Below are positions 39,223 through 57,237 of a stretch of DNA of 64,000 bases, in pieces. Made by a program: the position numbers and the translations under genes. Each line of letters starts with the position of its first letter. Within the stretch, counting starts at the first letter, position 1. Source of the stretch: Bacilli bacterium (GTDB lineage Bacteria; Bacillota_I; Bacilli_A; RF39; UBA660); NCBI GenBank assembly GCA_017432825.1, contig JAFRIJ010000011.1, forward strand, positions 34,591 to 98,590. The letters are read 5' to 3'. The notes beneath the pieces are model-generated. The model was not told the DNA's origin. It was given only the letters and a program-made list of their open reading frames with translations, and searched no databases.

Positions 39223-39227
39223 TAATT

Positions 39228-39256: not shown

Positions 39257-39273
39257 TAGAAGATGGTGATATT

Positions 39274-40290: not shown

Positions 40291-40315
40291 AAAACTTCCT
40301 GCTGGAAGTTTTTTT
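40291..40315. terminator. Bidirectional terminator between tsaC (+) and rpe (-)
   Basis: Stem aaaacttcc/ggaagtttt with a tgct loop and T5 on the plus strand. It sits between two convergent stop codons. Confidence 0.55.
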
Positions 40316-40316
40316 A

Positions 40317-40943
40317 TTATAACAATTTATTTATTTGTTCTTTATAATTATCACTTTTCGTTATGTATGATCCTACTACAGAAATATTTGCTTCTTTTAT
40401 TTTTTGTATTATTTCGTTATTTATTCCGCCATCTACTTCTATTTGAACTTTATATTTATTATTATCAATTATTTTTCTTAGTTCTTTTACTTTGTCTATT
40501 GTGTTTTCAATAAACTGTTGTCCTCCTTTACCTGGTTCTACACTCATTACTAGTATTAAATCTATTTTATCTAAGTATGGTGTTAATACATTAATATTTG
40601 TATCTGGTTTTATAGCAACTCCAACTTTATATCCTATTTCTTTTATTTTATTTATTATTTCATTTATATTTTTTTCCACTTCTATGTGAAAAGTTATATA
40701 TTTTATATTTAAGTTCTCACATTTATTTATATATGCAAGTGGGTTTTCCACCATTAAGTGGATATCTAATTTTTTCTTGGAAATACTATTTATTTTTTTT
40801 ATTTCATCAATTGTGAATTGGGTGTCTTCAACGAATAATCCATCCATTACATCAATATGGATATATTTAGTTTTAGTGAAATTTAATTTTTTAATTGATT
40901 CTTCTCTATTATTTGAGTTTAATATGGATGTTGATATTTGCAT
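40317..40943 (-). CDS. rpe: Ribulose-phosphate 3-epimerase
   Basis: ...IHIDVMDGLFV...LDIHLMVENP... is TIM-barrel RPE. The gene holds the conserved position after rsgA. Confidence 0.85.
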   Translation of the reverse strand: MQISTSILNSNNREESIKKLNFTKTKYIHIDVMDGLFVEDTQFTIDEIKKINSISKKKLDIHLMVENPLAYINKCENLNIKYITFHIEVEKNINEIINKIKEIGYKVGVAIKPDTNINVLTPYLDKIDLILVMSVEPGKGGQQFIENTIDKVKELRKIIDNNKYKVQIEVDGGINNEIIQKIKEANISVVGSYITKSDNYKEQINKLL

Positions 40944-40977
40944 ATTACCAGCTCCTTATTTATTAAAAGATATAAGA

Positions 40978-41823
40978 TTATCTTATATCTTTTATGCTAT
41001 TTATGAATTGTTTGTAGTTTTCATATCTAGATTTTAATATATTACCATTTTCTACTTGTTCTTTTACATAGCAGTTATCTTCTTTTATGTGCATGCAATC
41101 TTTATATTTACAATGATGTGAATTATCAAATATATCTTTCATATTATGACTTATATCTGTTTTAGTCATATCAGTAAAATCTACTTGTGAAAATCCTGGT
41201 GTATCTACAATATAACCATCTAATAATTCATACAATTCTGTATGTCTTGTTGTATGTTTTCCTCTATTTAGGGCATATGATATATCGTTTGTTTTTAAAT
41301 TTAAGCTTGGATTTAATTTATTTAATAAACTACTCTTTCCTGCTCCTGACTGTCCTGCTAAGACAGTTACTTTGTTTTTAAATATATTTATAAGATTATC
41401 TTTATTTTCATTGGTTACTACTTTGTATCCTGTTTTTTTATAATAATCTATATATTTATCTATTTCTTTTCTTTCTTCTCCTTTTAATAAATCTAATTTA
41501 GTAAAACAAATTATTGGTTCTATATTATTATAACTTATTATTGTTAGTAATTTATCTAGTAAATAAGTATCTAAGTTAGGATTTTTTACACTTGTTACAA
41601 TAAGAGCATTATCTATATTAGATACGTTAGGTCTAATAAGATAATTTTTTCTAGGATATATTTTTAATATATAATTATTATCTTCATCAAATAATACATT
41701 ATCTCCTACTAATGGTGTTGTTTTATCCTTTCTAAATTTACCTCTTGGTTTGCATATATATTCTTTATTATTACTTTTTACTACATAGTCATTACTTATA
41801 TTTTTTATTATTTTTCCTTCCAT
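40978..41823 (-). CDS. rsgA: Ribosome small-subunit-dependent GTPase A
   Basis: Circularly permuted GTPase (VLAGQSGAGKSSLLN) with a C-terminal zinc-finger CKYKDCMHIKEDNC. Confidence 0.85.
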   Translation of the reverse strand: MEGKIIKNISNDYVVKSNNKEYICKPRGKFRKDKTTPLVGDNVLFDEDNNYILKIYPRKNYLIRPNVSNIDNALIVTSVKNPNLDTYLLDKLLTIISYNNIEPIICFTKLDLLKGEERKEIDKYIDYYKKTGYKVVTNENKDNLINIFKNKVTVLAGQSGAGKSSLLNKLNPSLNLKTNDISYALNRGKHTTRHTELYELLDGYIVDTPGFSQVDFTDMTKTDISHNMKDIFDNSHHCKYKDCMHIKEDNCYVKEQVENGNILKSRYENYKQFINSIKDIR

Positions 41824-41838
41824 ATTCCCCCCATGATA

Positions 41839-43803
41839 TTATCCATCTCCTTCAGGTTCATTTTCAGAATCTTTTGTGTAATAACAATTAACTGTATCAT
41901 CATCATTGTTTATTTTATAATCAACTGTTGGTGTTTTGGTTGTATATCCTGTTTTACCTTTACATTCAATTTTTCCTGTTGAACCATTTGATAGATTTTT
42001 CTTTAAAGGTTCAGTATCCATTATTGAATTTGTTGTTCCATCAATATAGTAATTAACTATTACGTTATAAGTTGTTGTATCAGCTTCTATTGATACTGAG
42101 AAAGATACTCCTGTTGATATTTTTCCTTTTCTATTTTGAGATGTTACTTTTTTACTTAGATATTGACTATAATCAGAAATGGTTTTTCCTTTTGAGTCTT
42201 TTACTACTAATGTTAAATTATAATCTTTAGAAAATTCTTCAACCTTTTCTAGTGTCCAATTTTCATCAACCATATCAGGATATTCTTCTAATATATCTGG
42301 TGTATATAGTATTACTGTATCATCTTTAGTTAATTCTTTCTTTGTATCTGGATCATATTCTGGATATTGATCAATTATTGTATTATTCTTTCCTACATAT
42401 TCACTTGGTTTTTCTACTTCTTTTTTCTCTTTTTTTACTATAACACCTAATTTATTTAGTTTTTCTTCTACTTCATTTATATTTTCTCCAGAATAATCTT
42501 CTAATTCAGATTTTAAAGGGCCAGATGATTCTATTATTTTTATAATACTTCCTTTTTTCTTGCTAGATCCTGCTTTGGGATTTGTTTTAATTACGTATCC
42601 TTCTTCTATTTCGTCACTTTCTTCTGTTTCTATTTCGTATTTAAAGCCTTTTTCTTTTAATTTTTTCTGAGCATTTTTAGTTTTCATATTTGTTACATCT
42701 GGTACATCTGCTATAGAAGAGTTATTTCTATGATTTATTATTGCAATTACTCCGATTAAAGCTATAAATAAGATTAAAACTATTAATATAATTATATTTC
42801 TTTTTTTATCATCACTTATTTTTTCGTTTTCTTCTAGCTCTTCTTCTTTTTCTTTATCTGGTAATGCTATATTATTAGAAATTGGTTTTTCTATATCTGT
42901 ATCTTTAATTGGTATTGCTTTACTTTCATCTATTTCACTTTCTGGATATTTATAATTGTATTTATTTTCATTGGCTCTATCTTCATCTAGGGCATGTACT
43001 AAATCTTCATGCATTTCTTCTATTGTTTCATATCTATTTTTAGGATTTTTTGCTGTTGCTTTTAATATAATATTTTCTATACTTTGTGGTATTAATGGAT
43101 TTTGTTTTCTAATACTTGGAAGTTTTTCTTTCATTTGTTTTAAGGCAATTTCTACAGCGTTATCTCCTTTAAATGGAAGATTTCCTGTAATTAATTCATA
43201 CATTAGTATACCTGATGAATAAATATCGCTTTTGGTTGTTGCTGTTTGACCTGCTGCTTGTTCTGGTGGCAAGTAGTGAACCGAACCCATTACAGAGTTT
43301 GTTTGAGTTAATTGAGTTGCATTTAGAGTCATTGCTATTCCAAAGTCAGTTATTTTTATCATTCCATTATCTAGAATCATTATATTTTGTGGTTTTATAT
43401 CTCTATGGATTATGTATGCTTTATGTGCTGCTGATAATCCATCTGTTAGTTGTGTCATTATATCTAAGACTTCTGGTATTGTTAATGCTCCTCTTTTTTG
43501 AATTAACTGTTTTAAAGTTCTTCCTTCAATATATTCCATTACAATATAATGTTGTCCTTCTTCTTCTCCTACATCATATACTTCAACTATATTAGGGTGT
43601 GATAAATCAGATACTGATCTTGCTTCTCTTTGAAATCTTCTAATAAACTTTTCATCGTTTTCTAAATCGCCTCTTAATACTTTTATGGCTACATTTCTTT
43701 CTAGTATTGTGTCTTTAGCTAAATATACGTTAGCCATTCCACCTTCGCCAATTGATTTAATGATTTCATATCTATCATTAATTTTTTGCCCCTTTGATAG
43801 CAT
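41839..43803 (-). CDS. prkC: Ser/Thr protein kinase PrkC-like: kinase domain, TM, and extracellular PASTA repeats
   Basis: Hanks kinase motifs (HRDIKPQNIMI, DFG, APE); one TM; at least two PASTA-like repeats (...DVPDVTNMKTKNAQKKLKEKGFKYEI...). Confidence 0.9.
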   Translation of the reverse strand: MLSKGQKINDRYEIIKSIGEGGMANVYLAKDTILERNVAIKVLRGDLENDEKFIRRFQREARSVSDLSHPNIVEVYDVGEEEGQHYIVMEYIEGRTLKQLIQKRGALTIPEVLDIMTQLTDGLSAAHKAYIIHRDIKPQNIMILDNGMIKITDFGIAMTLNATQLTQTNSVMGSVHYLPPEQAAGQTATTKSDIYSSGILMYELITGNLPFKGDNAVEIALKQMKEKLPSIRKQNPLIPQSIENIILKATAKNPKNRYETIEEMHEDLVHALDEDRANENKYNYKYPESEIDESKAIPIKDTDIEKPISNNIALPDKEKEEELEENEKISDDKKRNIIILIVLILFIALIGVIAIINHRNNSSIADVPDVTNMKTKNAQKKLKEKGFKYEIETEESDEIEEGYVIKTNPKAGSSKKKGSIIKIIESSGPLKSELEDYSGENINEVEEKLNKLGVIVKKEKKEVEKPSEYVGKNNTIIDQYPEYDPDTKKELTKDDTVILYTPDILEEYPDMVDENWTLEKVEEFSKDYNLTLVVKDSKGKTISDYSQYLSKKVTSQNRKGKISTGVSFSVSIEADTTTYNVIVNYYIDGTTNSIMDTEPLKKNLSNGSTGKIECKGKTGYTTKTPTVDYKINNDDDTVNCYYTKDSENEPEGDG

Positions 43804-44543
43804 TAATCATCACCACTTTCTTTTTTTAGATAAGCTACACTTATATTATCGTTTCCCCCTCTTGCATTTGCTTTTTTTATTAATTTTTCTAATGCTTCTT
43901 TTGGTGTAGGCTCTGTATTTAGTACTTTTTCTATTTGATCTTGTGTAAGCATATTTGTTAATCCATCACTACACAAGAGAATTCCATTTATATTTATATC
44001 TACATCAAATATATCTATATCTATTGGGTTGTTTGCTCCTAAAGCTCTCATTAATACATTTTTTCTTGGATGATATTTTGCTTCTTCTTCTGTTAGTTCT
44101 CCAGTCGATACTAATAAATTTACTAACGTGTGATCTTTAGTTACTTTGTGCATTTTTTTATTTTTAATTACATATCCTGAACTGTCTCCTATATTTCCAT
44201 ATAATAAATAGTCATTTGTAATTATTGCGCAGACAAATGTTGTTCCCATTCCTTTACTATCAGGATTTTCTTTGGTGTAATCAAATATTTTATTATTCAT
44301 TTCTGTTACTATATTTCTTAACCATTCTATGGCATTTTCTTTTGTTCCTATTGTGTCTAATCTATAGAATTCTTCCGTTAGATGATTAATTACTATAGCG
44401 CTTGCTACTTCTCCTGCTTTATGTCCTCCCATGCCATCTGCAACTGCAAGAATGTATTCATTATTTTCATTATTCAATATTATTACGTTGTCTTCATTGT
44501 GATCTCTTACTTTTCCGGGATCTGTTATATAATATGTTTGCAT
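43803..44543 (-). CDS. stp: PP2C-family Ser/Thr phosphatase (Stp/PrpC)
   Basis: DGMGGH and the other PP2C metal-binding motifs. It overlaps prkC by 1 nt. Confidence 0.85.
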   Translation of the reverse strand: MQTYYITDPGKVRDHNEDNVIILNNENNEYILAVADGMGGHKAGEVASAIVINHLTEEFYRLDTIGTKENAIEWLRNIVTEMNNKIFDYTKENPDSKGMGTTFVCAIITNDYLLYGNIGDSSGYVIKNKKMHKVTKDHTLVNLLVSTGELTEEEAKYHPRKNVLMRALGANNPIDIDIFDVDININGILLCSDGLTNMLTQDQIEKVLNTEPTPKEALEKLIKKANARGGNDNISVAYLKKESGDD

Positions 44544-44544
44544 T

Positions 44545-45570
44545 TTACCCTCCTATCATTTGGTTGGCTCTTAATTGTCCGCATGCTGCATCTACTTTGC
44601 TACCAAATTCTTTTCTTATTGTTACATTTACTTTATTTTTCTTTAATACATCATAAAAACTCATTATATCCTTATTGTTTGTTCTTCTAAATTCTATATT
44701 TTCTGTCTCATTATATGGTATTAAATTTACATAACAATTTATACCTTTTAATAATTTAGCTAATTCTTGAGCATTCTCTTTAGAGTCATTTATGTCTTTT
44801 AACATTATATATTCAAATGTAACTCTTCTATTTGTTTTTTCTATGTATTTTTTTATTGTATCCATTAAATCATTTAATTTATATACTTTTGCTATAGGCA
44901 TTATTTTTTCTCTTAACTTATCGTTCGGAGCATGTAAACTTATAGCAAGATTTACTTGTCCCGGTTCATTTATGAATTTTTCTATACCAGGTATTATTCC
45001 ACAGGTTGAAATAGTTATGTGTCTTGAACCTATATCTATTCCTTTAGGATTATTTACAATCTTAATGAAATTCATAACGTTATCATAGTTATCAAATGGT
45101 TCTCCTATTCCCATAATGACAATATGTGTAATTCTTTTTTTTATATCTTCTTCTATATATAAAATTTGTTCCACCATTTCATATGGTTCTAGATTTCTTA
45201 CTTTTTTTAATCTTCCACTTTCACAGAATTTACATCCCATATTGCAGCCTACCTGAGATGAGATACAAATACTTATTCCATAATCATGAATCATTAATAC
45301 TGATTCTATTCTTTGTCCATCTATTAATTCAAATAAATATTTTTTTACATTAACATCTTCTTGTTTTAATATTAGTTTAATTTTGAACATACTAAAATCA
45401 TTTTTTAATAATTCTATTGTTTTTTTTCCTATATTTATCATTTCATCAAACGATTTTACTCTTTTTTTATATAAAAACTCATATATTTGATCTGCTCTAT
45501 ATTTTTTATCATTATTCTCTAACAAGTAATTTCCTAAATCACCTTGTGTAAAATTATATATATTTTTCAC
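44545..45570 (-). CDS. rlmN: 23S rRNA (adenine2503-C2)-methyltransferase, radical SAM
   Basis: CNMGCKFCESG radical-SAM cysteine triad with full-length RlmN similarity. Confidence 0.9.
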   Translation of the reverse strand: MKNIYNFTQGDLGNYLLENNDKKYRADQIYEFLYKKRVKSFDEMINIGKKTIELLKNDFSMFKIKLILKQEDVNVKKYLFELIDGQRIESVLMIHDYGISICISSQVGCNMGCKFCESGRLKKVRNLEPYEMVEQILYIEEDIKKRITHIVIMGIGEPFDNYDNVMNFIKIVNNPKGIDIGSRHITISTCGIIPGIEKFINEPGQVNLAISLHAPNDKLREKIMPIAKVYKLNDLMDTIKKYIEKTNRRVTFEYIMLKDINDSKENAQELAKLLKGINCYVNLIPYNETENIEFRRTNNKDIMSFYDVLKKNKVNVTIRKEFGSKVDAACGQLRANQMIGG

Positions 45571-45586
45571 TTTTTGCTCCTTATAA

Positions 45587-46042
45587 TTAGTATATTTTCT
45601 TAGTAAATATATAGAATAGAGCTATATTTAAAATTATATAAAAAATAATAATTGAAATTGTTAATTTTTTGGTGTTTTTGATTTTTAGTAAGTATTTGTT
45701 GTATAGTAGTGTATATATTGTGAAGAAGAAAGTAATTATTAATGTGATATAGTTTCTTCCAAAGAAAAGATTTTTTGTTTTACTAATTAGTACTTTTTCT
45801 TTTCCTGGTAGTGATATATAGTTTACATAATTGTGTCTTGCAAAATATATTATCATTACTATATCAATTAACAATATTAAAATATAAGATAAAATTGTTT
45901 GCTTTTTCGTTATTTCTTTTTTATTTTTTTTTACGTTAGTAATATTATTATTTTTCTTATTCATATTATCACTACTTTCTATTTTATTATATCTTTTTTT
46001 TGTATTTATTTCAACTATTTTGCAAGAAAAAAGCAGTTTCAT
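45587..46042 (-). CDS. Small membrane protein (hypothetical; basic N-terminus plus 3 TM helices)
   Basis: ORF with hydrophobic helices only. Confidence 0.4.
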   Translation of the reverse strand: MKLLFSCKIVEINTKKRYNKIESSDNMNKKNNNITNVKKNKKEITKKQTILSYILILLIDIVMIIYFARHNYVNYISLPGKEKVLISKTKNLFFGRNYITLIITFFFTIYTLLYNKYLLKIKNTKKLTISIIIFYIILNIALFYIFTKKIY

Positions 46043-46062
46043 TACTGAAGCTACTCATATAA

Positions 46063-46611
46063 TTATAATTTTACCTTTATATTTTCTTTTTTATTTTCTT
46101 CTACTTTAAATAATTCAGCTTTCTTAAATCCAAATATCGCTGCTACTATATTACTTGGAACAGATTCAATTACAATATTATAATTTGTTACAACATCATT
46201 ATATTTATGTCTTGCTCTTTCTAATTCATTTTCAATTGTAGTTAATTCATCATGTAATTTTAAATATTGTGTATTTGCTTTCAAATCAGGATATGCCTCT
46301 ACTACTGCTAAATATTTATTTAGTTCATTATTCATTTTTTCTAATTTCTTTATATTAATATTATCTTCTTTTTTATAATCATTTCTTAAAGATACAATAT
46401 TTTCTAGTGTTTCTTTTTCATATTTTGAATATGATTTAATACATTCTACTAGGTTAGGAATTAAATCAAATCTTTTATTAGAATATATATCAATACTAGA
46501 TTTTTCTTTTTTTGTTTCATTATATAATTTTACCAAGCTATTATATTTAGCAAATATGTTTAAGTTAATAATTAGCACTATTATTAATACTATATAAATT
46601 AATATATTCAT
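46063..46611 (-). CDS. lemA: LemA-family protein
   Basis: An N-terminal TM followed by ...KYNSLVKLYNETKKEKSSIDIYSNKRFDLIPNLVE..., which matches the LemA consensus. Confidence 0.8.
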   Translation of the reverse strand: MNILIYIVLIIVLIINLNIFAKYNSLVKLYNETKKEKSSIDIYSNKRFDLIPNLVECIKSYSKYEKETLENIVSLRNDYKKEDNINIKKLEKMNNELNKYLAVVEAYPDLKANTQYLKLHDELTTIENELERARHKYNDVVTNYNIVIESVPSNIVAAIFGFKKAELFKVEENKKENIKVKL

Positions 46612-46620
46612 AATCCACCT

Positions 46621-47115
46621 CTAATACTCTATCGTTATTTTATTAATGTAACCTTCTTCATTATAATCAACTGATACTTCATATTTATGCCATTCTTCAA
46701 AACTCTTTTTTAAGTTTTTTATTTCTTCTGGATCAGTTGTATTTATATTTCCATATATTACATTTATTAATCTTTCTTTCTTTTGTTTATTGTTTTTTAT
46801 TACATCATCTAATAGAAATGAAATACTAGCTTCATATTGACTTCCCGCACGAAATTCAAATGTTCTATTGAAATTCTCTTTGTCGTATTCTTTTTGTCGT
46901 TTTTCTGCTTCTTCTTTTATCTTGTTTATTGAATCTTCAACATCCTTACTATTTTTATTTATATTTTCTTTTACTTCATTCATGTTTTTTCTTTGATTAT
47001 CTATTATTTTTTTAAAACCTAGTATTCCTTTATATGCTAGAAATGTTGCTATTGCAATTGTAATTATAATTAATATTATTAATAACCACTTTCTTGGTTT
47101 AGTTTCTTTTTCCAT
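46621..47115 (-). CDS. Single-TM hypothetical protein with a coiled-coil segment
   Basis: ORF plus one TM helix; no recognisable family. Confidence 0.4.
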   Translation of the reverse strand: MEKETKPRKWLLIILIIITIAIATFLAYKGILGFKKIIDNQRKNMNEVKENINKNSKDVEDSINKIKEEAEKRQKEYDKENFNRTFEFRAGSQYEASISFLLDDVIKNNKQKKERLINVIYGNINTTDPEEIKNLKKSFEEWHKYEVSVDYNEEGYINKITIEY

Positions 47116-47116
47116 A

Positions 47117-48112
47117 TTATACTCCTTTATTAGCTTGTATTATTGTTATTAGTATTGTACCAACTATATCTTCAATACTGCTTCCTCTTGATAAGTCATT
47201 TACTGGTTTAGACATTCCTTGCGTTATTGGTCCAAAAGCTTTGGCTTTGGCTAATCTTTCTACTAGTTTGTATCCAATATTACCTGAATCTAAATCAGGA
47301 AAAATTAATACATTGGCTTTACCTGCTACTTTTGAATCCGGTGATTTTATTTTTGCTATTTCCTTTACAATTGCTGCATCTAATTGTAATTCGCCATCTA
47401 TAATGTATTCTTTATATTGTTCATTTGCTATTTTGTTTGCCTCTATGACCTTATCGACATCTACGTGTTTTGCGCTTCCTTTGGTTGAATGAGAAAGCAT
47501 TGCTACTAATGGTTCTTTACCTATTAATAATCTAAATGAATCTGCACTTTCTTTTGCTATACAAGCTAATTCTTTTGAAGTAGGATTTTGTACTAATCCG
47601 CAGTCAGCAAATACAAATGTTCCATTTTCGCCATATTCACAATTAGGAATGCTCATTAAAAAGAAAGATGATACTAATTCTGTATTGGGAGCTGTTTTTA
47701 ATATTTGTAATGCAGGTCTTAATGTATTTGATGTTGAGTGACATGCTCCAGATACTGCTCCATCCGCATAATTATCTTTTACTAGCATGCATGCATAATA
47801 CATATTATCATTTAGTAATAATTCTTTTGCTTCTTCTTTAGTCATTCCTTTTTCTTTTCTTAATTGATAAAGCTCTTCTATAAATTTTTCTGTTAAATTA
47901 CTATTATGGGGATCTATTATTTTTGCTAATGAAATATCAATATTCTTACTTTCTATTTCTTCTTTATTACCAATCAATATTATATTTGCAATATTTTCTT
48001 TTAAAATAATTTCTGCTGCTTTTAATACTCTTTCTTCTGTTGATTCTGGTAATACTATTGTTTTTTTATTATCTTTTGCTTTTATTTTTAAGTTTTCTAT
48101 TACATTATTCAT
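47117..48112 (-). CDS. pta: Phosphate acetyltransferase
   Basis: A 331-aa PTA_PTB-family protein (...GAVSGACHSTSNTLRPALQI...). No ackA gene is adjacent. Confidence 0.85.
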   Translation of the reverse strand: MNNVIENLKIKAKDNKKTIVLPESTEERVLKAAEIILKENIANIILIGNKEEIESKNIDISLAKIIDPHNSNLTEKFIEELYQLRKEKGMTKEEAKELLLNDNMYYACMLVKDNYADGAVSGACHSTSNTLRPALQILKTAPNTELVSSFFLMSIPNCEYGENGTFVFADCGLVQNPTSKELACIAKESADSFRLLIGKEPLVAMLSHSTKGSAKHVDVDKVIEANKIANEQYKEYIIDGELQLDAAIVKEIAKIKSPDSKVAGKANVLIFPDLDSGNIGYKLVERLAKAKAFGPITQGMSKPVNDLSRGSSIEDIVGTILITIIQANKGV

Positions 48113-48167
48113 ATCACCATCTCCAGCTTTATTATAACAATTATTTTTTTGATAGTCTATTCTTTTT

Positions 48168-48668
48168 TTAAATTAAAATTGATTCAATTATTAATTGCTT
48201 TGTTTTATTGGTTTTACTACAGGTTATTAATATTAATTTATCTGATTTGTTATTATCTATTGTCATATATCCTGTTTTATTAATATAATATATTTTATTT
48301 ATTTTATAAGTATATATTGTACTATTATAATAAATGTATATTAAATCATTTATTGACAGATATACTAATTTATTAAAATAGGCATTATTGTTATTTCCCG
48401 AATGAGATGCTAGGATAATAAATTTATTATTTATATTCGATTCTTTTAATAGTTCTATATTTATTTCCACATTATTCTTAGGACTATTTATGTTGTATAT
48501 TTTTTTATCTATATTAATTTTAGGAATAATTAATTTAAATAGATAATCTTCTTTTGGTAGCGTTTTATTTACTAATTTTTTGTTATAAACTATTTTGTTT
48601 TTTATTTTGCTTTCTTTTGGAATTGGTAATAGTAATACTACTATTAATATAATTATTAGCTTTTTTAT
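48168..48668 (-). CDS. Small sortase-like transpeptidase. The ORF-track version (48168..48470, GTG start) holds only the C-terminal half. The in-frame upstream extension encodes the membrane anchor but has no ATG, GTG or TTG start; an ATA at about 48667-48669 follows an aggag RBS.
   Basis: Conserved His context ILASHSG and the TLxTC-like active site LILITC. The upstream in-frame extension reads KKLIIILIVVLLLPIPKES...KLIIPKINIDKKIYNINS.... No Arg follows the Cys, only Lys residues. Confidence 0.5.
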   Translation of the reverse strand: MKKLIIILIVVLLLPIPKESKIKNKIVYNKKLVNKTLPKEDYLFKLIIPKINIDKKIYNINSPKNNVEINIELLKESNINNKFIILASHSGNNNNAYFNKLVYLSINDLIYIYYNSTIYTYKINKIYYINKTGYMTIDNNKSDKLILITCSKTNKTKQLIIESILI

Positions 48669-50787
48669 AAATTATCACTCCTATTAAAACTAAGATTATT
48701 TTTATATAATTGAGTATATTTATTCTATTACTTAGAGTATTTGGTATTGTTATTTGTGTATTATTATCTTCTTCTATTTCAATGGTATTATTATTTATTT
48801 TTTCTGTTAATACTACTTTTTTGTTATTATCATCTTCTGTTAGTACTAGGCATTCTTTAGTGTTTTTTTCTTTTATACAATAAGTTGCTAATTCTAAATT
48901 ATTTAATTCTAATACCCCATTTTTATTTGTTTTATAATTGTTTATTAATACATTATCTTTATATACTTCTATTTCAACATTTTCTCTTTTAGATATTATC
49001 TTTTTATTATCTATATTTTCTTCTTTATTTGTAATTATTTTTATACTTCCTTTTATTTTGGTATTAAAATAGTCAATATTTACTAATAATTCTTTTTCGG
49101 TGTTTATATAATTGGTTTTATCATTAATGATTATTGTTAAAATTTCTTTATTATTTTGATAATTTTTAGGTGAATTTACTTGTTCTATATAATAAGTACC
49201 ATAAGGTATTTCAAATGGTAATAAGAGTTTTCCACTTTCATCTGTGGAAAAAGCTTCTATGTTATTATGTGATAAATAATTTCCTTTTTCATCTTTTATT
49301 TTATATTTAATTTGGTTATCGTTTATTTCATTTAATGTCTCTTTATCTTTAGTGGTTATTTGTAATTTTGTTTTTATTTGTTTATTTATTAGTGTATAAT
49401 TGTATGGATTATTTATTTCTCTATCTACAATAAAATATAAAATTGGGGCTTTTTCATATCCGTAAGTAGTGTTTTCTTGAATTACTTTATATTTTCCATA
49501 AGGTAATGTTATTATACTGCTACCTTGTTTGGTTGTTATTATAGATCCAAAATAATTTGTTGTTTTATCATAAAATTTAAAAGTAAATTCTATATTTTCT
49601 TCTCTTTCAAGTTTATTATTTACTTCGTAGAATTTATTAATTTCAAACTGGCGTTTTATTACTTCTTCTTCTAAGGTAATATTACCAGTTTTAGATAAAT
49701 CCACTTCAATTAGCTCTTCATTTTTTTTATATCCTTCACTTGCTTTTATTTGCTTAATATAATATTTTTCTTTATACAAATTATCTATTGTGTATTTTAA
49801 ACTACTATCAAATTTAAATGAAGTTACTAAATTATTGTTTTTATCATATAATTCATATTCTGCTCCTTCTAAAGTAGCTTGTCCTTTTGGAATAGTAGTT
49901 TTGGTATCTTTATCTACTAGATTTGTCTCTAGTTTATATCCTTCAATATTTATAGTTACTTCCTTTGTATTAGATGGGATATATCCTTTGGATATTAATA
50001 ATTGGGAATTATTATTACTATATACTTTTTTAGGTATATTTGTATAATTGTTTATACTTAATACTACTTTAGCAGTTCCAAAATAATTATCTACTGTAGA
50101 CAGTTTTAAATTATTGTTTGTTTTGTCTCCTATAATATTTTGTATATTATTTATTTTATATAAGAATAAGTTGCTACTAAAGAATGTAATAGTGTCTCCT
50201 ATTTTTAAATTTACATTGGATGGAACATTTAATTTTTCAGTATAACTATTTATTTTGCTTTTTATTTCATTAATGTAACTATCTATGTTTATTCTATTAC
50301 CATTTATATCTTCTTCATTAGTCCAGGTTATATCTAGATTTTTGTTTAAATATTCCCATATTATTTCTTGAGTTGCCATATAATATTCTTTTTCACTATG
50401 TATTTTTTCTTCATTTTCTTCATATTGATAGCCAAAATAGGCTACTAGATTTATGTATTCTAGTTGTTCTTTAGTTAAGTTAGTTATTCTTTGTTGTTCT
50501 TCTATATTGTCAGTAGAATTATATGTAGTTGTTGTTATACTTTTACCTATTTCAATACAATAGCTAGGTATATTATTAATTGTAAATATCTCTAAGTTAT
50601 ATAAGTGGGTTCTATCACTTAATGGTGCTATGGCAAATATTCCATCTTGTTTATTTCTTACTAAAACTGAATCATTTTCTTTAGCATACACACTAGTTAT
50701 TCCTGTAAATAATATTAATAATAATATTATTAATTTATTACTTTTTATTCTTTTTTTATTTTTTTTGCTTATATTCATTTCTTTCAC
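48583..50787 (-). CDS. Thioester-domain (TED) adhesin with Cna-B / prealbumin-like stalk domains, a signal peptide and a C-terminal sorting-signal-like tail
   Basis: Signal peptide MKEMNISKK...SVYA. Thioester Cys motif YCIE and Gln motif TQEIIW. Cna-B-like repeats include LEGAEYELYDKNNNLV...YYIKQIKASEGY. The tail ...IPNTLSN... is followed by a hydrophobic stretch and KK. Confidence 0.7.
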   Translation of the reverse strand: MKEMNISKKNKKRIKSNKLIILLLILFTGITSVYAKENDSVLVRNKQDGIFAIAPLSDRTHLYNLEIFTINNIPSYCIEIGKSITTTTYNSTDNIEEQQRITNLTKEQLEYINLVAYFGYQYEENEEKIHSEKEYYMATQEIIWEYLNKNLDITWTNEEDINGNRINIDSYINEIKSKINSYTEKLNVPSNVNLKIGDTITFFSSNLFLYKINNIQNIIGDKTNNNLKLSTVDNYFGTAKVVLSINNYTNIPKKVYSNNNSQLLISKGYIPSNTKEVTINIEGYKLETNLVDKDTKTTIPKGQATLEGAEYELYDKNNNLVTSFKFDSSLKYTIDNLYKEKYYIKQIKASEGYKKNEELIEVDLSKTGNITLEEEVIKRQFEINKFYEVNNKLEREENIEFTFKFYDKTTNYFGSIITTKQGSSIITLPYGKYKVIQENTTYGYEKAPILYFIVDREINNPYNYTLINKQIKTKLQITTKDKETLNEINDNQIKYKIKDEKGNYLSHNNIEAFSTDESGKLLLPFEIPYGTYYIEQVNSPKNYQNNKEILTIIINDKTNYINTEKELLVNIDYFNTKIKGSIKIITNKEENIDNKKIISKRENVEIEVYKDNVLINNYKTNKNGVLELNNLELATYCIKEKNTKECLVLTEDDNNKKVVLTEKINNNTIEIEEDNNTQITIPNTLSNRINILNYIKIILVLIGVIIYKKANNYINSSITITNSKRKQNKKQNSL

Positions 50788-50835
50788 CTCTAATTATATT
50801 ATTAGAGATTAATTATTAATTTCCTTTTAATTTAA

Positions 50836-50864
50836 TTAAAAAAAACTAGTTTTTTACTAGTTTT
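50836..50864 (-). terminator. Terminator-like hairpin downstream of the M13 peptidase gene
   Basis: aaaactagt / actagtttt inverted repeat with a ttttt loop and an A/T-run flank. The stem is AT-rich, so it is weak. Confidence 0.3.
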
Positions 50865-52783
50865 TACCATACTTTTACTCTTTTTTTAGGAGATATATAC
50901 ATTTTATTGAAAGAATTAATATTATATGTTTTATAAAATAATTCTGTGGAAGATAGCGTTCCATTTACTCTATATTTGGATGGAGAATGATTATCTTGTA
51001 ATAATAGTAATTCTTTGTATTCTTCTTTTTCTATCGAAGCCCATAGGTTTGCTAAAGATTTATACATATGTTTAATTTCTTCTTTTTTAGCTTTTTTTGA
51101 TTCTGCTATTCCTGATATACATGATACCGCTCCTAAATCAGCAATATTTTCGTTTACTGTTTTTCTTCCATTTATGTATGATCCTTTTACTACTTCATAT
51201 TTGTTATAGTATTTAATTACGTCTTGTTGCTTTTTCTTAAAGATATTATAATCTTCTTCTTGCCACCAATTATTTATGTTTCCTTTGTCATCAAATTTTG
51301 AACCATTATAATCAAATGCATGAGTTATTTCGTGTGCTATAATCATACCTATTGATCCTAAATTTTTATAATAGTTATCTTTTTCATCAAATAATGTAAA
51401 TGATGATATTGGTATATTAATTGAATTATCTTGAGGATTATAGTAGGCATTTACTGTTGTTTCTGTAATAAGATTATCTTGTTTATTAGTTTTTAATTTT
51501 GATAATTCATAGTTATATAGATATTTTTCAATGGTTATAATATTTTCTATTAATGTATTATTTTCATTTAAATTATAATCGTAATTATTGTAATTAGATA
51601 CTCCTATATTTATTTTCATATTATTTAGTTTTAGCTTGGCTTTTTTTCTTGTTTCTTTACTTAACCAATCTAATGTATCTATATTTTTTTTATAGTAATT
51701 TATTATTTCTTTAGTCATTTTATTTATATAATCTACTTTTTCTTGAGATATGTTGTTTTCTTTATATATTTTATCTATTTCGTTATTAAAATAATTATCT
51801 ATTATTTCTCTTATTTTTTCTTCTTCATTATTTATTTTTTTCCCTAATAGTTTATTATTTAATTCATATATTAGATTACTATAATTATTATCTAAGAAAA
51901 TTGCATAATTTTCTAATATTTTTAGTTTAAGTTGTTCTTTTAATAATTCTAAGTTATCATTTGATAGATAATTATTTATTGTCTTATAATTATTGATATC
52001 TATAATGCTAAATATTTCTTCATTTATATTTTTTTCTTTTAAATATTTATCTATATCTATATTAGTATATACTTTCTTTAATTCTTCTTTGGTTATTATA
52101 TTATAATATTTTGATATATCTTCTAAGTCTTTAGATAATAATGAATTATTAGAAATATCTGTATACATATTTGTTATACTTTTTGAAACGTCTCTAGCTT
52201 TTTTAGTACTATAGCCGTATTGTTTTAATATTTTTATTCCATATTGTTTAATTAGTGCTTTATATGACATATAATCTTCATTTGCATAAAAATCTGAGGT
52301 TGCTCCAAAATCCATTGTTATTGGGTATAAATATATTATACTTTTGCTATTATCTTTATAATCTTTTTCTACTTTTATATTAGTAAATATGTCTATATTT
52401 AATTCTTTTTCTATTATTATAGCATTTTTTATATAATCCTCTATATTATTTGAATTATCTACTATATTTATGTATTTGCTTAGTGTTGATAAGCCTTTTT
52501 CTTTAGTTAATAGTTTTTCATATATTATACTTATATTATTGTTTGTTTTATTTTCTATTAATTTATTAATTATTTCTTTTTTTTTGTTATCAACTTTTTC
52601 TTGTTTATCTATGAACGTACTCCAAGTGTATTCATCATTTTTTAATTTATGTTTTTCTATTATTTTTTTATTTATATAATTATAATAATCATCTTTTAAT
52701 TCATTATTAGGTAATAATAATAGTGGAATTATTATAACTATTATTAATAATAATATTTTTATTCTTTTCATTTTATATACCAA
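50864..52783 (-). CDS. pepO: M13-family zinc metalloendopeptidase (PepO / neprilysin-like), secreted or anchored
   Basis: Zinc-binding HExxH as IAHEITHAF, the downstream ENIADLGA motif, and an N-terminal signal/anchor. Confidence 0.8.
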   Translation of the reverse strand: MVYKMKRIKILLLIIVIIIPLLLLPNNELKDDYYNYINKKIIEKHKLKNDEYTWSTFIDKQEKVDNKKKEIINKLIENKTNNNISIIYEKLLTKEKGLSTLSKYINIVDNSNNIEDYIKNAIIIEKELNIDIFTNIKVEKDYKDNSKSIIYLYPITMDFGATSDFYANEDYMSYKALIKQYGIKILKQYGYSTKKARDVSKSITNMYTDISNNSLLSKDLEDISKYYNIITKEELKKVYTNIDIDKYLKEKNINEEIFSIIDINNYKTINNYLSNDNLELLKEQLKLKILENYAIFLDNNYSNLIYELNNKLLGKKINNEEEKIREIIDNYFNNEIDKIYKENNISQEKVDYINKMTKEIINYYKKNIDTLDWLSKETRKKAKLKLNNMKINIGVSNYNNYDYNLNENNTLIENIITIEKYLYNYELSKLKTNKQDNLITETTVNAYYNPQDNSINIPISSFTLFDEKDNYYKNLGSIGMIIAHEITHAFDYNGSKFDDKGNINNWWQEEDYNIFKKKQQDVIKYYNKYEVVKGSYINGRKTVNENIADLGAVSCISGIAESKKAKKEEIKHMYKSLANLWASIEKEEYKELLLLQDNHSPSKYRVNGTLSSTELFYKTYNINSFNKMYISPKKRVKVW

Positions 52784-53924
52784 ATAATACTTTTTCTTCT
52801 TTATATTGTCTTGTTATAATGTAGATAACTATTATTACATAAATTATAGATGAAATTAAAACGATAAATATATTTAAAATATTGAATTCTTTAGAAAAGA
52901 TATCCATTAATATTTGTACGTAGTTAATTATTGGTATTAGGTAAAAAAATGATGTTATTTTTATACCCATTATTGATATCATCATTGGTATAATTGTTAT
53001 TACATTTAATACTTGAGATGATGATTGAGCTTCTTTATATGTTTTAGAAAATGATGTTATTGCTATGGCTAATCCAGATATAAATAGGGAAGCTGATAGG
53101 CATATAATAAAACCAAATATTATTGTTATTACGTTTATTTCAAAGTTATATGTTTTAAATGCTTCAAAAAATGATGATGCTACAAATATACTTCCAATTG
53201 TTAGGATTAAACCTATTATTGATGATACAATGCTTGCTATTACACACGCTAGATATTTACCTGCTACTAATTCACTTGGCTTTATAGGAAATGTTAGTAA
53301 TGTTTCTAAGGTTCCATTTTCTTTTTCTACTGCTGTAGCAGAAGTTGCCATATTAGTACTTGCTAAAACTATTGCAGCTATAATATAAGTAAATGATATA
53401 GAGAATATTAATTTTAACATAAAATTTTCTCCTTCTAGGTTTTTAAATTTATATGTAAAATTATTATATACTGTTTCTACATCTATATCTTCTCCTGTTA
53501 AATAAAGTTTAGCTAAATATGTGTTATATGAATCTAGGTATGATGTTATGTAATTGGTAGCATACATTCCGTCTTCTGAGTCTTGGTTTGTATATATTGT
53601 ATATTTTTTTTGTTTCTCATTATAGTCTATATATGCTACTATTTTACCTTTTTTATATGAATTTTTCATATTATCTATATTTTTATAGTAAATTGGGGTA
53701 ATAAAACATTCTTTCATTAATGATTTTTCTGTTGTGTTTGTTTTATAATTAATTCCTATATTATAATATTTTTCTTCACTTTGATTTTCATATATATATG
53801 CATATAAAAATATCATCATTGGTATTAGAATAGGAAATACTAATAGTGTTATAAGTGTCTTTTTATCTCTTAGTAATGATCTTATTTCTTTTTTTATAGT
53901 TATTATTATACTTTTTTTATTCAT
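52773..53924 (-). CDS. ABC-2 type transporter permease
   Basis: An N-terminal TM, a large extracytoplasmic loop, then five C-terminal TM helices. It overlaps the ATPase gene. Confidence 0.7.
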   Translation of the reverse strand: MNKKSIIITIKKEIRSLLRDKKTLITLLVFPILIPMMIFLYAYIYENQSEEKYYNIGINYKTNTTEKSLMKECFITPIYYKNIDNMKNSYKKGKIVAYIDYNEKQKKYTIYTNQDSEDGMYATNYITSYLDSYNTYLAKLYLTGEDIDVETVYNNFTYKFKNLEGENFMLKLIFSISFTYIIAAIVLASTNMATSATAVEKENGTLETLLTFPIKPSELVAGKYLACVIASIVSSIIGLILTIGSIFVASSFFEAFKTYNFEINVITIIFGFIICLSASLFISGLAIAITSFSKTYKEAQSSSQVLNVITIIPMMISIMGIKITSFFYLIPIINYVQILMDIFSKEFNILNIFIVLISSIIYVIIVIYIITRQYKEEKVLFGI

Positions 53925-54669
53925 TTATGCCTCCTATTATAGAGAAGAAACTATCTCTTAGGTTAGTTGTTTTAGTTTGCTTTTTTATTTCTTTTGGTGT
54001 TCCGGTTGCTATAATTTTGCCTTTATTTATCATTATTATTTTATCACATATATTTTCTGCTTCTTCCATGTAATGGGTTGAATATAGTATACATTTATTA
54101 TTATTTTTTTCTTCCTTTATGAAATTTAATATTACTTGACTAGATATTATATCTAAACCGCTAGTAGCTTCATCTAAGATATAGTATTTTGGATTATGAA
54201 TTAGGCATCTTGCTATAGAAGTTCTTTGATATTGACCAGTAGATAAATTATCTATTTTTTGATGTAAGAAAGAATTCATATCAAATTTATTAGCTATTTC
54301 TTTTATTCTTTTTTCTAATTCTTCTTTTGGAACATCATAGTATTCTCCACACATTTTTAATAATTCATATGGTGATATATCTTTATATAGTTTGGTATTA
54401 CCCGATAGGTAAGCTATTTTCTTTTTTATAGAAATTGCTTTATCATTATACCTTTCATTATCAATAGTAATAGTTCCTTCGGTTGGATTCATTATTCCCG
54501 CTATAATTCTTAATAGAGTTGTTTTACCAGCACCATTTGGTCCTAATATACCTATTATTTCTCCTTCTTTGGCATTAAATGATATGTTATTATCAGCTTT
54601 AAATAATACTGTTTCTTTTTTACTATTTTTTTTCTTAAATTCTTTGGTAATATTATCTACTTTTAACAT
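53917..54669 (-). CDS. ABC transporter ATP-binding protein (partner of the ABC-2 permease)
   Basis: Walker A GPNGAGKTT, signature LSTGQYQR, Walker B ILDEATSGLD. Confidence 0.85.
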   Translation of the reverse strand: MLKVDNITKEFKKKNSKKETVLFKADNNISFNAKEGEIIGILGPNGAGKTTLLRIIAGIMNPTEGTITIDNERYNDKAISIKKKIAYLSGNTKLYKDISPYELLKMCGEYYDVPKEELEKRIKEIANKFDMNSFLHQKIDNLSTGQYQRTSIARCLIHNPKYYILDEATSGLDIISSQVILNFIKEEKNNNKCILYSTHYMEEAENICDKIIMINKGKIIATGTPKEIKKQTKTTNLRDSFFSIIGGINE

Positions 54670-54687
54670 ATAATCACTCTTTCTATA

Positions 54688-55098
54688 TTATATTCCTAAT
54701 TGTGAATTAACTCTTTTTTGATAGGCTGCTAGGATTTTTTTATTACCCTTTTTTTCTTTTTTTGGTATTAGTTTATCAGCATTTTTTAATTCAAATTCAC
54801 ATAATAATAAATCTATTAATCTTCTTTGTGTTTTGGTTGGTTCTTTTTTACTTCCGTTTATTTCTTTAAATATTTTATTTATTCTATTATATATATCTAC
54901 GTCTAGTCTTTCTATAGTATGGAGATATTCGTGGGCTCTATCAGTTAATAATGCTCCATTATCGATAGTTCTTTTGCCACCATTTTCTTTTTTTATTATA
55001 TGATGATAGGTTAAATTGTTATTAATAATTATATAATCCATCCAATCCATGGTATATGTATTATATATTTCCATCATTTGTTCTGTTATTTTATCCAT
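54688..55098 (-). CDS. Small HNH endonuclease-domain protein
   Basis: ...YHHIIKKENGGKRTIDNGALLTDRAHEYLH... follows the H-N-H spacing. The gene starts 1 nt after the DUF1848 gene stop. Confidence 0.6.
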   Translation of the reverse strand: MDKITEQMMEIYNTYTMDWMDYIIINNNLTYHHIIKKENGGKRTIDNGALLTDRAHEYLHTIERLDVDIYNRINKIFKEINGSKKEPTKTQRRLIDLLLCEFELKNADKLIPKKEKKGNKKILAAYQKRVNSQLGI

Positions 55099-55099
55099 C

Positions 55100-55984
55100 T
55101 TAACTTCTTTCTTTTATAATATCATCACTTTCTAATTCTCCTATTAATAGTGATGATTTTTTATTATGTCTCTTTATATTATTATTTATTTCTTTTTCAT
55201 CATAATTAGCATAGCAATACTTACATAAATGATTACATGAATTATAATATCCAATATCTACCATTTCAACACAATTACATTTTTTTTCTTTTCTTGCGGT
55301 CCAATTCTTATATTTTTTCCCTGTTAATTTATAGGCTAATTCATGTGATAGACATTCTCCTTTTATAAAGCCATACTCTGTTAAGTTTTCATCTTCGTAG
55401 CAGGTTTGTACTGTCATGTTATGTTTTTTTGCTATAGTAGAAAAAGATATACCTATTTCTTTATAATCTTCTTTAGTTATTTCTTTGTATTTTATTATAT
55501 TTTTATTTTTCTTAACGTTTTTATATTCATCTAGAAAAGATACTATTATTTTATTAACATATCCATCTAACAGAGAACACATTTTATTAAAAGCTTTTTT
55601 ATGATATTCTAGATTATATTTATCACTTATAAATATTGGATCATATCTGATATAAATATTATCTTTTCCTATAATATTAGATATTTCTTTTACTGCATCT
55701 ATTATTATTTTTTTGTCTGTAACGTTTGGTTCTATATCTTTATTATATGGAGTTATAGTTATATGAAATATTATTGGTTTATCTATAATATTTATGTATT
55801 TTATAATAGGAAGAGGATTTTTAGTACAGAAAAGAATTAAGTCTACATTATTAAAATATATTCTACTTACTTGTTTTTTATAATATGGGTTTCTTACATC
55901 TACATATCCTTCTTTATATCTATTCATAAACCAATCTGTATAGAATGCTACTATATCTGTTCTCCCGCTTACATTTAATATCAT
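55100..55984 (-). CDS. DUF1848-family protein with a C-terminal Cys cluster
   Basis: The N-terminus ...GRTDIVAFYTDWFMNRYKEGYVDVRNP... and the C-terminal CNCVEMVDIGYYNSCNHLCKYCYAN fit my recollection of the DUF1848 pattern. Confidence 0.55.
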   Translation of the reverse strand: MILNVSGRTDIVAFYTDWFMNRYKEGYVDVRNPYYKKQVSRIYFNNVDLILFCTKNPLPIIKYINIIDKPIIFHITITPYNKDIEPNVTDKKIIIDAVKEISNIIGKDNIYIRYDPIFISDKYNLEYHKKAFNKMCSLLDGYVNKIIVSFLDEYKNVKKNKNIIKYKEITKEDYKEIGISFSTIAKKHNMTVQTCYEDENLTEYGFIKGECLSHELAYKLTGKKYKNWTARKEKKCNCVEMVDIGYYNSCNHLCKYCYANYDEKEINNNIKRHNKKSSLLIGELESDDIIKERS

Positions 55985-56047
55985 ATTCTACTCCTTATAT
56001 TTATTATAAAATATTTAATAAAAAAAGTATATATTTTCTATATACTT

Positions 56048-57181
56048 TTAATCGCTAAAATCATTATCTATTATTACATAATAAGTATAGTTTGGATATA
56101 ATTTTTTTATTTCATTTATAACTTTTCTTTTTATTTTTTCTGGAGATTTAGTATTAAAATCTACAATTATATCAAAGTTTATTTGATTTTTTTTGCTATC
56201 TATATAAAATCCATGTAATTGTAATATTTCTTTATAATTAGATATTATTTTTTCTAAATCAGTTTTAATTTTTAATGATTCTTTATCACTTGTATTAGAT
56301 GCATATATTCCAATTGTTAGGATTATTCCAAAGGATGTATATATTTTCTTTTCTATTTCTTTGGTTAAAATATGTATTTCTTTTGCAGTCATAGTATCTT
56401 TTACTTGGATATGGACTGATCCAATCATTTGCATTGGTCCATAGTTGTGTAATACTAAATCATAAGTTCCTTCAACTTCAGGATATAAATTTATTGCTTC
56501 TTTTAATTTTATAGCTAATTCTTTATTAACCCTGGTTCCTATTAATTCACTTGATGTTTCTTTTAATAATTCAATGCTTGATTTAAGTATAAATAGTGAT
56601 ATTAATAGTCCTATTATTCCTTCTATATTTATTTTAAATAATAAATAAGATAAAATTGCTATAAGGGTTCCTGTGGATAATATTGCATCAAATAAGGCAT
56701 CTGTTCCAGATGCTATTAAACTTCCTGAATTTATTTTGTTTCCTATATTTTTAACATAACTTCCTAATAATATTTTAACTATTATAGCTGTTATTATTAT
56801 TATAATTGTATATACTGTATAATTTGGTTTGGTTGGATTTATTATATTAGTAAATGATTCTTTTAAGGATAATACTCCTGCTACTAGAATAATTATTCCT
56901 ATAATAATAGATGTAAAATATTCTATTCTTCCATGTCCATAGGGATGTTCTTTATCTGGAGCTTTTGTTGATAATTTAGTTCCAATTATGGTTATAATTG
57001 ATGATAGGGCATCTGTTAAGTTGTTTATAGCATCTAATATTATAGCTATTGAATTGGCAATAAATCCTATTATTAATTTAAATATTACTAATAATATATT
57101 AACTATTATTCCTTTAATACTTGTTTTAATTATTTTGTTTTGACGTTCCATTATTACTCCTTTATATATAAATGTCTTCAT
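56048..57181 (-). CDS. Cation diffusion facilitator family transporter
   Basis: Six TM helices, an EHPYGHGR motif, and a C-terminal cytoplasmic domain. Confidence 0.8.
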   Translation of the reverse strand: MKTFIYKGVIMERQNKIIKTSIKGIIVNILLVIFKLIIGFIANSIAIILDAINNLTDALSSIITIIGTKLSTKAPDKEHPYGHGRIEYFTSIIIGIIILVAGVLSLKESFTNIINPTKPNYTVYTIIIIITAIIVKILLGSYVKNIGNKINSGSLIASGTDALFDAILSTGTLIAILSYLLFKINIEGIIGLLISLFILKSSIELLKETSSELIGTRVNKELAIKLKEAINLYPEVEGTYDLVLHNYGPMQMIGSVHIQVKDTMTAKEIHILTKEIEKKIYTSFGIILTIGIYASNTSDKESLKIKTDLEKIISNYKEILQLHGFYIDSKKNQINFDIIVDFNTKSPEKIKRKVINEIKKLYPNYTYYVIIDNDFSD

Positions 57182-57237
57182 AATAATATTTATTATTTAT
57201 TGTTTAATATTATTATTAAAAAACTCAATTTAGAGTT

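Follow-up and report, generated by a model that had tools for sequence, protein, structure and literature searches.

A sortase gene that probably starts at an AUA codon within its adhesin substrate gene, and its family with glutamine at the catalytic arginine position

The sortase gene and its overlap with the adhesin gene

A 64,000-nt stretch of contig JAFRIJ010000011.1 from a Bacilli bacterium (positions 34,591 to 98,590; hereinafter designated the window) carries on its minus strand a sortase gene that overlaps the 3' end of the gene for its putative substrate, a surface adhesin. The adhesin gene (48583..50787, minus strand) encodes, according to the list of open reading frames (ORFs), a secreted protein of 734 amino acids (aa) with one thioester domain and repeated SpaA/prealbumin-like domains (Pfam TED, E-value 1e-9; SpaA, E-value 1.5e-21, in four stretches). 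Its C-terminal part contains the sorting motif IPNTLSN (48727..48747), a hydrophobic segment of 19 residues (48667..48723) and a Lys-rich tail that ends at the stop at 48583; no other IPNTLSN-type sorting signal occurs in the window. The cytoplasmic tail (48583..48666) extends 29 residues past the helix (KKANNYINSSITITNSKRKQNKKQNSL), the corresponding length being ~10 residues in most orthologues, and the adhesin frame stays open through the sortase signal-anchor codons. A single adhesin gene, not a pilin cluster, lies upstream of the sortase.

An open stretch of 167 codons in the sortase frame begins at 48671, immediately after a TAA (48674..48672), and runs to the stop codon at 48170..48168. 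Read from an ATA codon, the gene (48168..48668, minus strand) encodes 166 aa (MKKLIIILIVVLLLPIPKES...) followed by the stop, and the product is identical to GenBank entry MBQ6495167.1. The 5' region of the sortase frame reads ...TAA TAG GAG TGA TAA TTT ATA AAA AAG CTA ATA ATT..., and the same region in the adhesin frame reads ATA CCA AAT ACT CTA AGT AAT (IPNTLSN) ... ATA GGA GTG ATA ATT TAT AAA AAA GCT. The overlap of the two genes (48583..48668) amounts to 86 nt or ~28 codons, with the sortase frame one base downstream of the adhesin frame, and contains a run of six A residues (A6) at 48661..48666.

The earliest canonical start in the sortase frame is a GTG at codon 68 (48468..48470, minus strand), and none of the 67 open codons that precede it is ATG, GTG or TTG. 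Mechanical ORF callers pick this GTG, and ab initio gene callers give only the corresponding 100-aa fragment. The internal GTG is not the real sortase start, because its product lacks the membrane anchor and the first β-strands. The Pfam Sortase match covers residues 48-162 of the extended translation (E-value 4e-14) and begins ~20 residues upstream of the GTG; the strands at residues 44-48 and 53-57 of the AlphaFold2 (AF2) model likewise sit upstream of it; and the 67 open codons are the maximum before a first canonical start among the window's minus-strand genes, the next values being 36 and 30. The chance of such a stretch in the 24%-GC window is ~1e-3, a rough estimate that takes a stop probability of ~0.1 per codon from base composition and was not computed with a tool. 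Profile match, predicted strands and the extreme length of the stop-free stretch together identify the upstream extension as coding sequence. It includes an N-terminal signal anchor, MKKLIIILIVVLLLP (48624..48668, minus strand), that exists only if translation begins at the ATA or nearby, and the anchors of the orthologues likewise have a positively charged beginning and then a hydrophobic stretch. The initial annotation of this locus had described a GTG-started fragment of about 100 aa in the ORF track, about 66 further open codons upstream devoid of canonical starts, an overlap of about 28 codons with the 3' end of the adhesin gene in another frame, and a signal anchor with early β-strands in the extension; re-inspection bears out all of these, with the open codons counted at 67.

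Alignment of the 166-aa translation with sortase hidden Markov models, which the same annotation had proposed as a check, does find sortase similarity: the translation scores 52.9 bits against PF04203 (Pfam Sortase; cutoff 26.6) and 42.5 bits against TIGR01076 (cutoff 39.35). Among class-specific models, the cutoffs for class C (NF033745 of NCBIfam, 43.1 versus 160 bits) and class D (NF033746, 30.5 versus 165 bits; NF058671, 33.2 versus 140 bits) are not reached, the scores for class E (12 bits) and class GN (16.5 bits) fall far below cutoff, and the class A, B and F models do not match the query. The AF2 model has a mean predicted local distance difference test score (pLDDT) of 82.5, exceeding 90 for the greater part of residues 41-166, and only sortases stand among its top Foldseek matches in the Protein Data Bank (E-value about 1e-8, template modelling score about 0.6). 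Between the anchor and strand 1 the model shows neither helix nor lid, at low confidence, residues 21-39 having pLDDT <50. By sequence, the best-matching solved structures are those of Bacillus anthracis SrtA and Listeria monocytogenes SrtA (E-value 5e-9 with the single sequence, 4e-16 with a profile). His89 (CAT, 48402..48404, minus strand) in the motif ILASHSG and Cys150 (TGT, 48219..48221, minus strand) in LILITC, a TLxTC-type motif, align with the catalytic His and Cys of solved sortases. As judged from sequence and predicted fold, the locus is an intact membrane-anchored sortase gene.

Start codon and Shine-Dalgarno sequence across related loci

The proposed ATA (AUA) initiation codon (48666..48668, minus strand) is split, in the adhesin frame, between a Tyr codon (TAT), which supplies its first two bases, and a Lys codon (AAA), which supplies the third. 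Nine nucleotides upstream of it lies, as the initial annotation had pointed out, an AGGAG (48682..48678); this Shine-Dalgarno sequence, extended to AGGAGTGAT (48674..48682, minus strand), falls in the adhesin codons Ile-Gly-Val-Ile. The arrangement at the sortase ATA is plausible, given that Shine-Dalgarno motifs elsewhere in the window belong to the AGGAGG/GGTGAT type and have spacers of 4-12 nt.

We read the 5' ends of the sortase gene at 18 loci, namely the window and 17 further loci encoding relatives; the collection includes a contig scan with eight close sequences (6 loci) and a metagenome scan (4 loci). A +1 overlap of 20-86 nt with the adhesin gene is present in 18/18. Twelve loci (the window, L001-L004, L007-L009, L020, L022, L024 and L025), from different metagenomes or metagenome-assembled genomes (MAGs), have a GC content of 22-26% and, where measured, ~50-60% aa identity to the window. 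All 12 carry ATA at the identical position, followed by Lys/Arg codons and then by a hydrophobic stretch, and none has a usable canonical start; the TTG near the start in L020 and L022 directly abuts the Shine-Dalgarno motif and therefore cannot use it. The motif located 8-9 nt upstream of the ATA is AGGAG or GGAGG in 11/12 loci and AGGCG in the remaining one. At L009, the overlapping adhesin residue changes from Tyr to His (TAT to CAT) and the ATA is kept.

The other six loci (L005, L006, L010, L027, L029 and L031) have an ATG, which occupies the homologous position in L006, L010, L029 and L031, where the adhesin frame reads TAT G..., and lies within a few codons of it in L005 and L027. The Shine-Dalgarno sequence of these six is absent or a weak 4-nt motif (AGGA or GGTG), with spacings of up to 16 nt. 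Across the 18 loci, start-codon strength and Shine-Dalgarno strength are inversely related.

Since distant relatives carry their own ATG at the homologous position, independent initiation appears to be ancestral: on this comparison the ancestral state is an overlapping sortase gene with its own start, and one clade went from ATG to ATA with a strong Shine-Dalgarno sequence. We conclude that the window's sortase probably initiates at the conserved AUA, under the strong Shine-Dalgarno sequence set within the adhesin helix codons; if the neighbouring near-cognate codons are counted together with it, initiation at one of this group is somewhat more probable still. Three points weigh against this assignment. 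A spacing of 9 nt is towards the upper limit of those in this genome; the TAT-AAA and GGA-G nucleotides are also under adhesin protein constraint (IGVIIYKK), to which ATA and AGGAG could owe some of their conservation as a by-product; and further near-cognate codons (ATA, ATT) lie a few codons downstream.

An AUA start in itself is an instance of a known phenomenon and is already annotated in GenBank: MBQ6495167.1, entitled 'MAG: sortase [Bacilli bacterium]', holds exactly the 166-aa protein beginning MKKL, which means that the NCBI pipeline called the ATA start. In Staphylococcus aureus, AUA starts with a strong Shine-Dalgarno sequence in infC, ccpN and citZ were found experimentally to give ~10-30% of AUG output (PMC13009471), and near-cognate starts in Escherichia coli give 1-2% (10.1101/063800). 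Like the sortase gene, S. aureus infC, ccpN, citZ and cvfC1 and E. coli infC/pcnB have a near-cognate AUA or AUU conserved among orthologues together with a strong or extended Shine-Dalgarno sequence (PMC13009471). Unlike in those genes, the proposed start and Shine-Dalgarno sequence of the sortase lie inside an upstream substrate coding sequence and are thus dual-coding, and the predicted product is a surface enzyme, not a regulator.

Between three explanations the initial annotation had made no choice: that the gene starts at a non-canonical AUA/AUU, that it is reached by frameshifting out of the adhesin frame, or that it is a pseudogene in decay. The orthologous-locus comparison it had proposed strongly supports the non-canonical start, which agrees with the GenBank entry as well as with the Shine-Dalgarno sequence, the 12 conserved ATA codons and the ATG at or near this position in distant relatives. 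A variant of it, initiation at a near-cognate ATA or ATT slightly downstream (anchor codons 5-9), would give a shorter N-terminus without the Lys-Lys n-region. Although several such codons lie within 10 codons, only the first ATA is conserved in position at 8-9 nt from the conserved Shine-Dalgarno sequence in 12/12 loci, only this ATA is homologous to the ATG of the relatives, and a downstream start would delete the positively charged n-region expected of a signal anchor; we regard such a start as improbable. A +1 ribosomal frameshift or transcriptional slippage on the Lys A-run (TAT AAA AAA G) would instead produce a self-processing adhesin-sortase fusion with two membrane helices. The lack of a canonical sortase start, the A-runs (A5-A8) at the frame junction in all ATA loci and a consistent fusion topology (adhesin outside, helix, Lys-Lys inside, helix, sortase outside) would all suit this mechanism. 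However, relatives in which the two genes overlap in the same way possess an ATG of their own at the homologous position, implying that independent initiation is ancestral, and it is the ATA loci in particular that keep a strong, correctly spaced Shine-Dalgarno sequence, of which frameshifting has no need. Lys codons in a 24%-GC genome account for the A-runs, which are short, and the register of the -1 heptamer A AAA AAG permits shifting only out of the sortase frame into the adhesin frame, which is the wrong direction. Nor does the overlap contain a recognizable stimulatory RNA element, with no Rfam match and folding no better than that of shuffled sequence (z = -1.1). A frameshift is thus unnecessary and unsupported, and we give it very little probability.

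Still less credible is the explanation that the locus is a decaying pseudogene without an ATG, that it encodes a non-functional 100-aa product from the GTG, or that it reflects a sequencing or assembly error. The missing canonical start and the 100-aa fragment from ab initio callers could be taken in its favour, as could a contig of the same species that lacks the adhesin and the sortase N-terminus (L019, described below). Yet 12 divergent orthologues keep both the family motifs and a frame that is open over its full length, and the catalytic His and Cys do not vary across 392 relatives (see below); 67 stop-free codons are improbable by chance in DNA of this composition; and the profile match and AF2 strands reach upstream of the GTG. 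A 593-nt stretch that takes in the A6 run and the ATA is identical in the window and in eight contigs of the same species, which come from different samples and different assemblers. This refutes an indel in the run, for which the initial annotation had proposed a check of read support, and, together with the invariant residues and the intact orthologue frames, the decay it had considered.

Two further candidate explanations were rejected. An indel in the A-run cannot be hiding a start, as neither A5 nor A7 would create an ATG, GTG or TTG by inspection of the sequence, and an alternative code with TGA as Trp cannot extend the frame upstream, as TAA and TAG flank the TGA and the long genes of the window fit code 11. 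A database gene call at one orthologous locus (P0014, L008 2840-2860; MLLWEEWYITRKK...) reads the TGA just upstream of the ATA as Trp; this artefact of annotation, apparently due to genetic code 4, conceals the non-canonical start. Other assemblies of the window's species also contain the 100-aa product that starts at the GTG. L019 (ERZ28654787 scaffold_29311, positions 1-460, corresponding to window ~48600..48760) matches the window exactly beginning at sortase codon ~24, and upstream of that an oppositely oriented mscL-like gene replaces the adhesin and the sortase signal anchor; the contig represents either a strain-level deletion or rearrangement that leaves an anchor-less sortase, or a chimeric assembly. 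The contigs of L001 (CAZRJK010000001.1) and L006 (CAYRAF010000020.1) are labelled 'uncultured Muribaculaceae bacterium', yet have 23-25% GC and a Bacilli-type adhesin-sortase locus, and are probably mis-binned or mislabelled.

Glutamine at the position of the catalytic arginine

The initial annotation had remarked that no Arg follows the active-site Cys. This holds for the entire 166-aa sortase, which contains zero Arg residues; LILITC is followed by SKTNKTKQLIIESILI and the stop codon. What had been read as a departure of this one gene from canonical sortases is, however, a family trait. The canonical catalytic-Arg position, at the start of strand β8, is occupied by Gln158 (CAA, 48195..48197, minus strand) in sequence alignments. 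Among 392 distinct relatives, the catalytic His and Cys are present in all 392 and Gln in 385, the remainder having Tyr (4), Lys (1), Thr (1) or His (1), and no Arg is conserved anywhere in the protein. The Lys that precedes Gln158 is found in 230/392 and is not conserved. The same pattern was seen in the initial 31 homologues, with His89 and Cys150 invariant and Gln at position 158 in 29/31. A profile search of 1.84 billion representatives returned at least 656 clusters (50% identity) at E ≤ 1e-30, and in the best 150 of the 656 the pattern ...TC-x(5-8)-Q is present in all but three, which have Tyr or Lys there. AT bias is no explanation for the Gln, which members with normal Arg content retain as well.

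The equivalence of Gln and Arg comes from phmmer, hmmsearch, MAFFT and hhalign comparisons. Gln158 aligns with the Arg of B. anthracis SrtA (2kw8; ...SKRYVVAGDL) and of L. monocytogenes SrtA (5hu4; ...TKRFVAVGEL), and in the near-identical β8 motif of a class D sortase from a Clostridium perfringens plasmid (...KERLIVKAEL) the Arg stands opposite the Gln of the family (...NKQLIVxSEL). Against this equivalence, in the alignment with C. perfringens SrtD (4d70) a one-residue gap choice pairs the Arg with Lys157 and not with Gln158. Other residues near-invariant in the family are Asn65 (NNV), Ser90-Gly91 (SHSG, compared with the usual GH..) and Lys131 (KTG), which are candidates for additional active-site or substrate-binding residues specific to it.

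In overall design the enzyme resembles the class D sortases WP_270600793.1, C. perfringens SrtD (4D70) and B. anthracis SrtD (2LN7), lid-less enzymes that, like it, are small and have an N-terminal anchor. In a set of 72,556 sequenced plasmids, the first of these, carried by C. perfringens plasmid pSXP-169_2, is the best annotated relative, at 29.5% identity; no close relative was present in that set, and none was found among phages. Class D sorting signals are of the LPNTA/LPDTS type, and the P[ND]T core of the Gln-family motif resembles them. The family differs from class D in having Gln for Arg, the His motif LASHSG in place of (I/L)AGH, and L/I/F followed by Ser-Asn after the signal Thr. 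The fold is also shared with B. anthracis SrtA (2KW8/2RUI) and L. monocytogenes SrtA (5HU4), with alignment at His, Cys and β8, at ~20% identity and with a Lys-Arg pair in SrtA where this family has Lys-Gln. Unlike this sortase, class A enzymes recognise LPXTG, act as housekeeping sortases and are not tied to a single substrate gene.

The near-invariance of the Gln argues for a catalytic role, and we infer that its side-chain amide supplies the hydrogen bonding of the Arg guanidinium. A mechanistic analogy is offered by papain, in which the side-chain amide of Gln19 in the oxyanion hole, beside the Cys-His pair, stabilises the tetrahedral intermediate; the analogy does not extend to the folds, which are unrelated. 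A review describes the sortase active site as His-Cys-Arg (PMC11231552), and our search of full-text literature, whose coverage excludes subscription journals, found no report of Arg-lacking or Gln-bearing sortases. Apart from the window's GenBank entry, none of the protein-search matches and none of the ten looked-up clusters carries a source-given name. An Arg-to-Gln family with its own motif and a link to conjugative elements would be a moderately surprising, undescribed variant within the sortases. Whether it amounts to a distinct active class (His-Cys-Gln) serving thioester/SpaA adhesins with [ILV]P[ND]Tx signals and lying, in the loci examined, on conjugative elements, with the window copy apparently domesticated on the chromosome, we judge to be an even bet on the sequence record.

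The most serious competitor is that the family consists not of transpeptidases like other sortases but of weakened or repurposed enzymes, for example proteases that release the adhesin or enzymes that use another acceptor. According to mutagenesis cited in the review above (PMC11231552), the Arg of S. aureus SrtA is needed for efficient catalysis, and a Gln enzyme could accordingly be slow or altered (hydrolysis, other nucleophile), which also counts against catalytic equivalence of the two residues. In addition, no class-specific sortase model matched, and the signal Thr is followed by a bulky L/I/F, not by Gly or Ala. Set against this are the strict conservation of His, Cys, the TLxTC-type motif and the fold, the near-invariant Gln, which indicates a selected catalytic role, and the tight pairing with a substrate that bears a complete tripartite sorting signal, as an acyl-enzyme transpeptidase would expect. 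We consider a repurposed enzyme unlikely, though less so than any of the alternatives for the start codon.

Genomic context and the proposed display module

In all loci the gene directly upstream of the sortase encodes a substrate that bears a sorting signal, and the motif in 15 close loci is [ILV]P[NDS]T[LIF]SN. The order adhesin-sortase-pta is kept in related species. In the wider family, all three contigs inspected (P0022, P0083 and P0070) have the sortase beside thioester/SpaA adhesins within conjugation modules encoding a single-stranded DNA-binding protein (SSB), a type IV secretion system pilin-like protein, TrbL and TraG/VirB4-like ATPases. The conjugation-module loci (L027 1958-7627, L029 755-7621 and L031 1988-7633) have the sorting motifs VPDTLSE, VPNTESN and VPNTGLN, and the sortase ATG overlaps the adhesin tail there by 20-26 nt in the +1 frame, indicating that the overlap architecture is old and family-wide. 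The window copy is chromosomal and not adjacent to a type IV secretion gene.

The adhesin shares the layout of signal peptide, thioester domain, CnaB/SpaA-like repeats and C-terminal anchor with the TIE adhesins BaTIE, SaTIE, EfmTIE86 and pLS20 TIE, and the adhesins of the wider family are tied to conjugation modules as described for pLS20 (PMC8092201). It differs from TIE adhesins in having IPNTLSN in place of LPXTG and a dedicated overlapping sortase gene; pLS20 TIE has neither a sortase nor a sorting signal.

The remainder of the window is housekeeping chromosome, with rlmN, a PP2C phosphatase, a PASTA kinase, rsgA, rpe, a gyrA-like gene, an M13 peptidase, VanY and YqfD. The PASTA-domain Ser/Thr kinase (41839..43803), the VanY D-Ala-D-Ala carboxypeptidase (61258..62427) and the sporulation protein YqfD (33127..34314), all on the minus strand, indicate that the organism is walled and possibly spore-forming, not wall-less like Mollicutes. 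The minus strand carries nearly all long ORFs of the window, and negative GC skew extends throughout 1..64000, which fits strong co-orientation of genes and replication on one replichore, with the long plus-strand ORFs as antisense shadows.

Taken as a whole, we favour, with a probability of roughly 0.7, a functional adhesin-sortase surface-display module whose sortase is AUA-initiated and belongs to the Gln family. In this two-gene chromosomal module of a walled, uncultured, 24%-GC Bacilli bacterium, the thioester/SpaA adhesin would be served by its dedicated sortase. The AGGAG within the codons of the adhesin transmembrane helix would direct independent initiation at AUA, giving the 166-aa enzyme with its N-terminal signal anchor. 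As AUA is a weak start, sortase output is likely to be lower than adhesin output, with the strong Shine-Dalgarno sequence compensating in part. The dual coding may account for the origin of the ATA: with an ATG start, the adhesin codon that overlaps it must have G as its first base (Glu, Asp or Ala following the helix), and with an ATA it can encode Lys or Asn. At the active site, the Gln side-chain amide would replace the hydrogen bonding of Arg in both substrate positioning and oxyanion stabilisation, and the enzyme would cut the [ILV]P[ND]T signal on the C-terminal side of its Thr and link the adhesin to the cell wall.

If this account is correct, the sortase Arg regarded as 'essential' would be dispensable, and a natural His-Cys-Gln family would probe what the Arg truly contributes, hydrogen bonding or charge. 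The family would add a sortase class that recognises [ILV]P[ND]T plus a bulky residue, a new sorting specificity that could serve sortase-mediated ligation. The conserved AUA within the substrate gene makes a clean comparative case of compensation between start codon and Shine-Dalgarno sequence under dual-coding constraint. Because standard gene callers truncate these genes or start them mid-helix, the family is systematically mis-annotated in metagenomes, as anchor-less fragments or with mid-helix starts. The wider-family loci examined link dedicated sortases to the conjugation adhesins of low-GC, uncultured gut Firmicutes.

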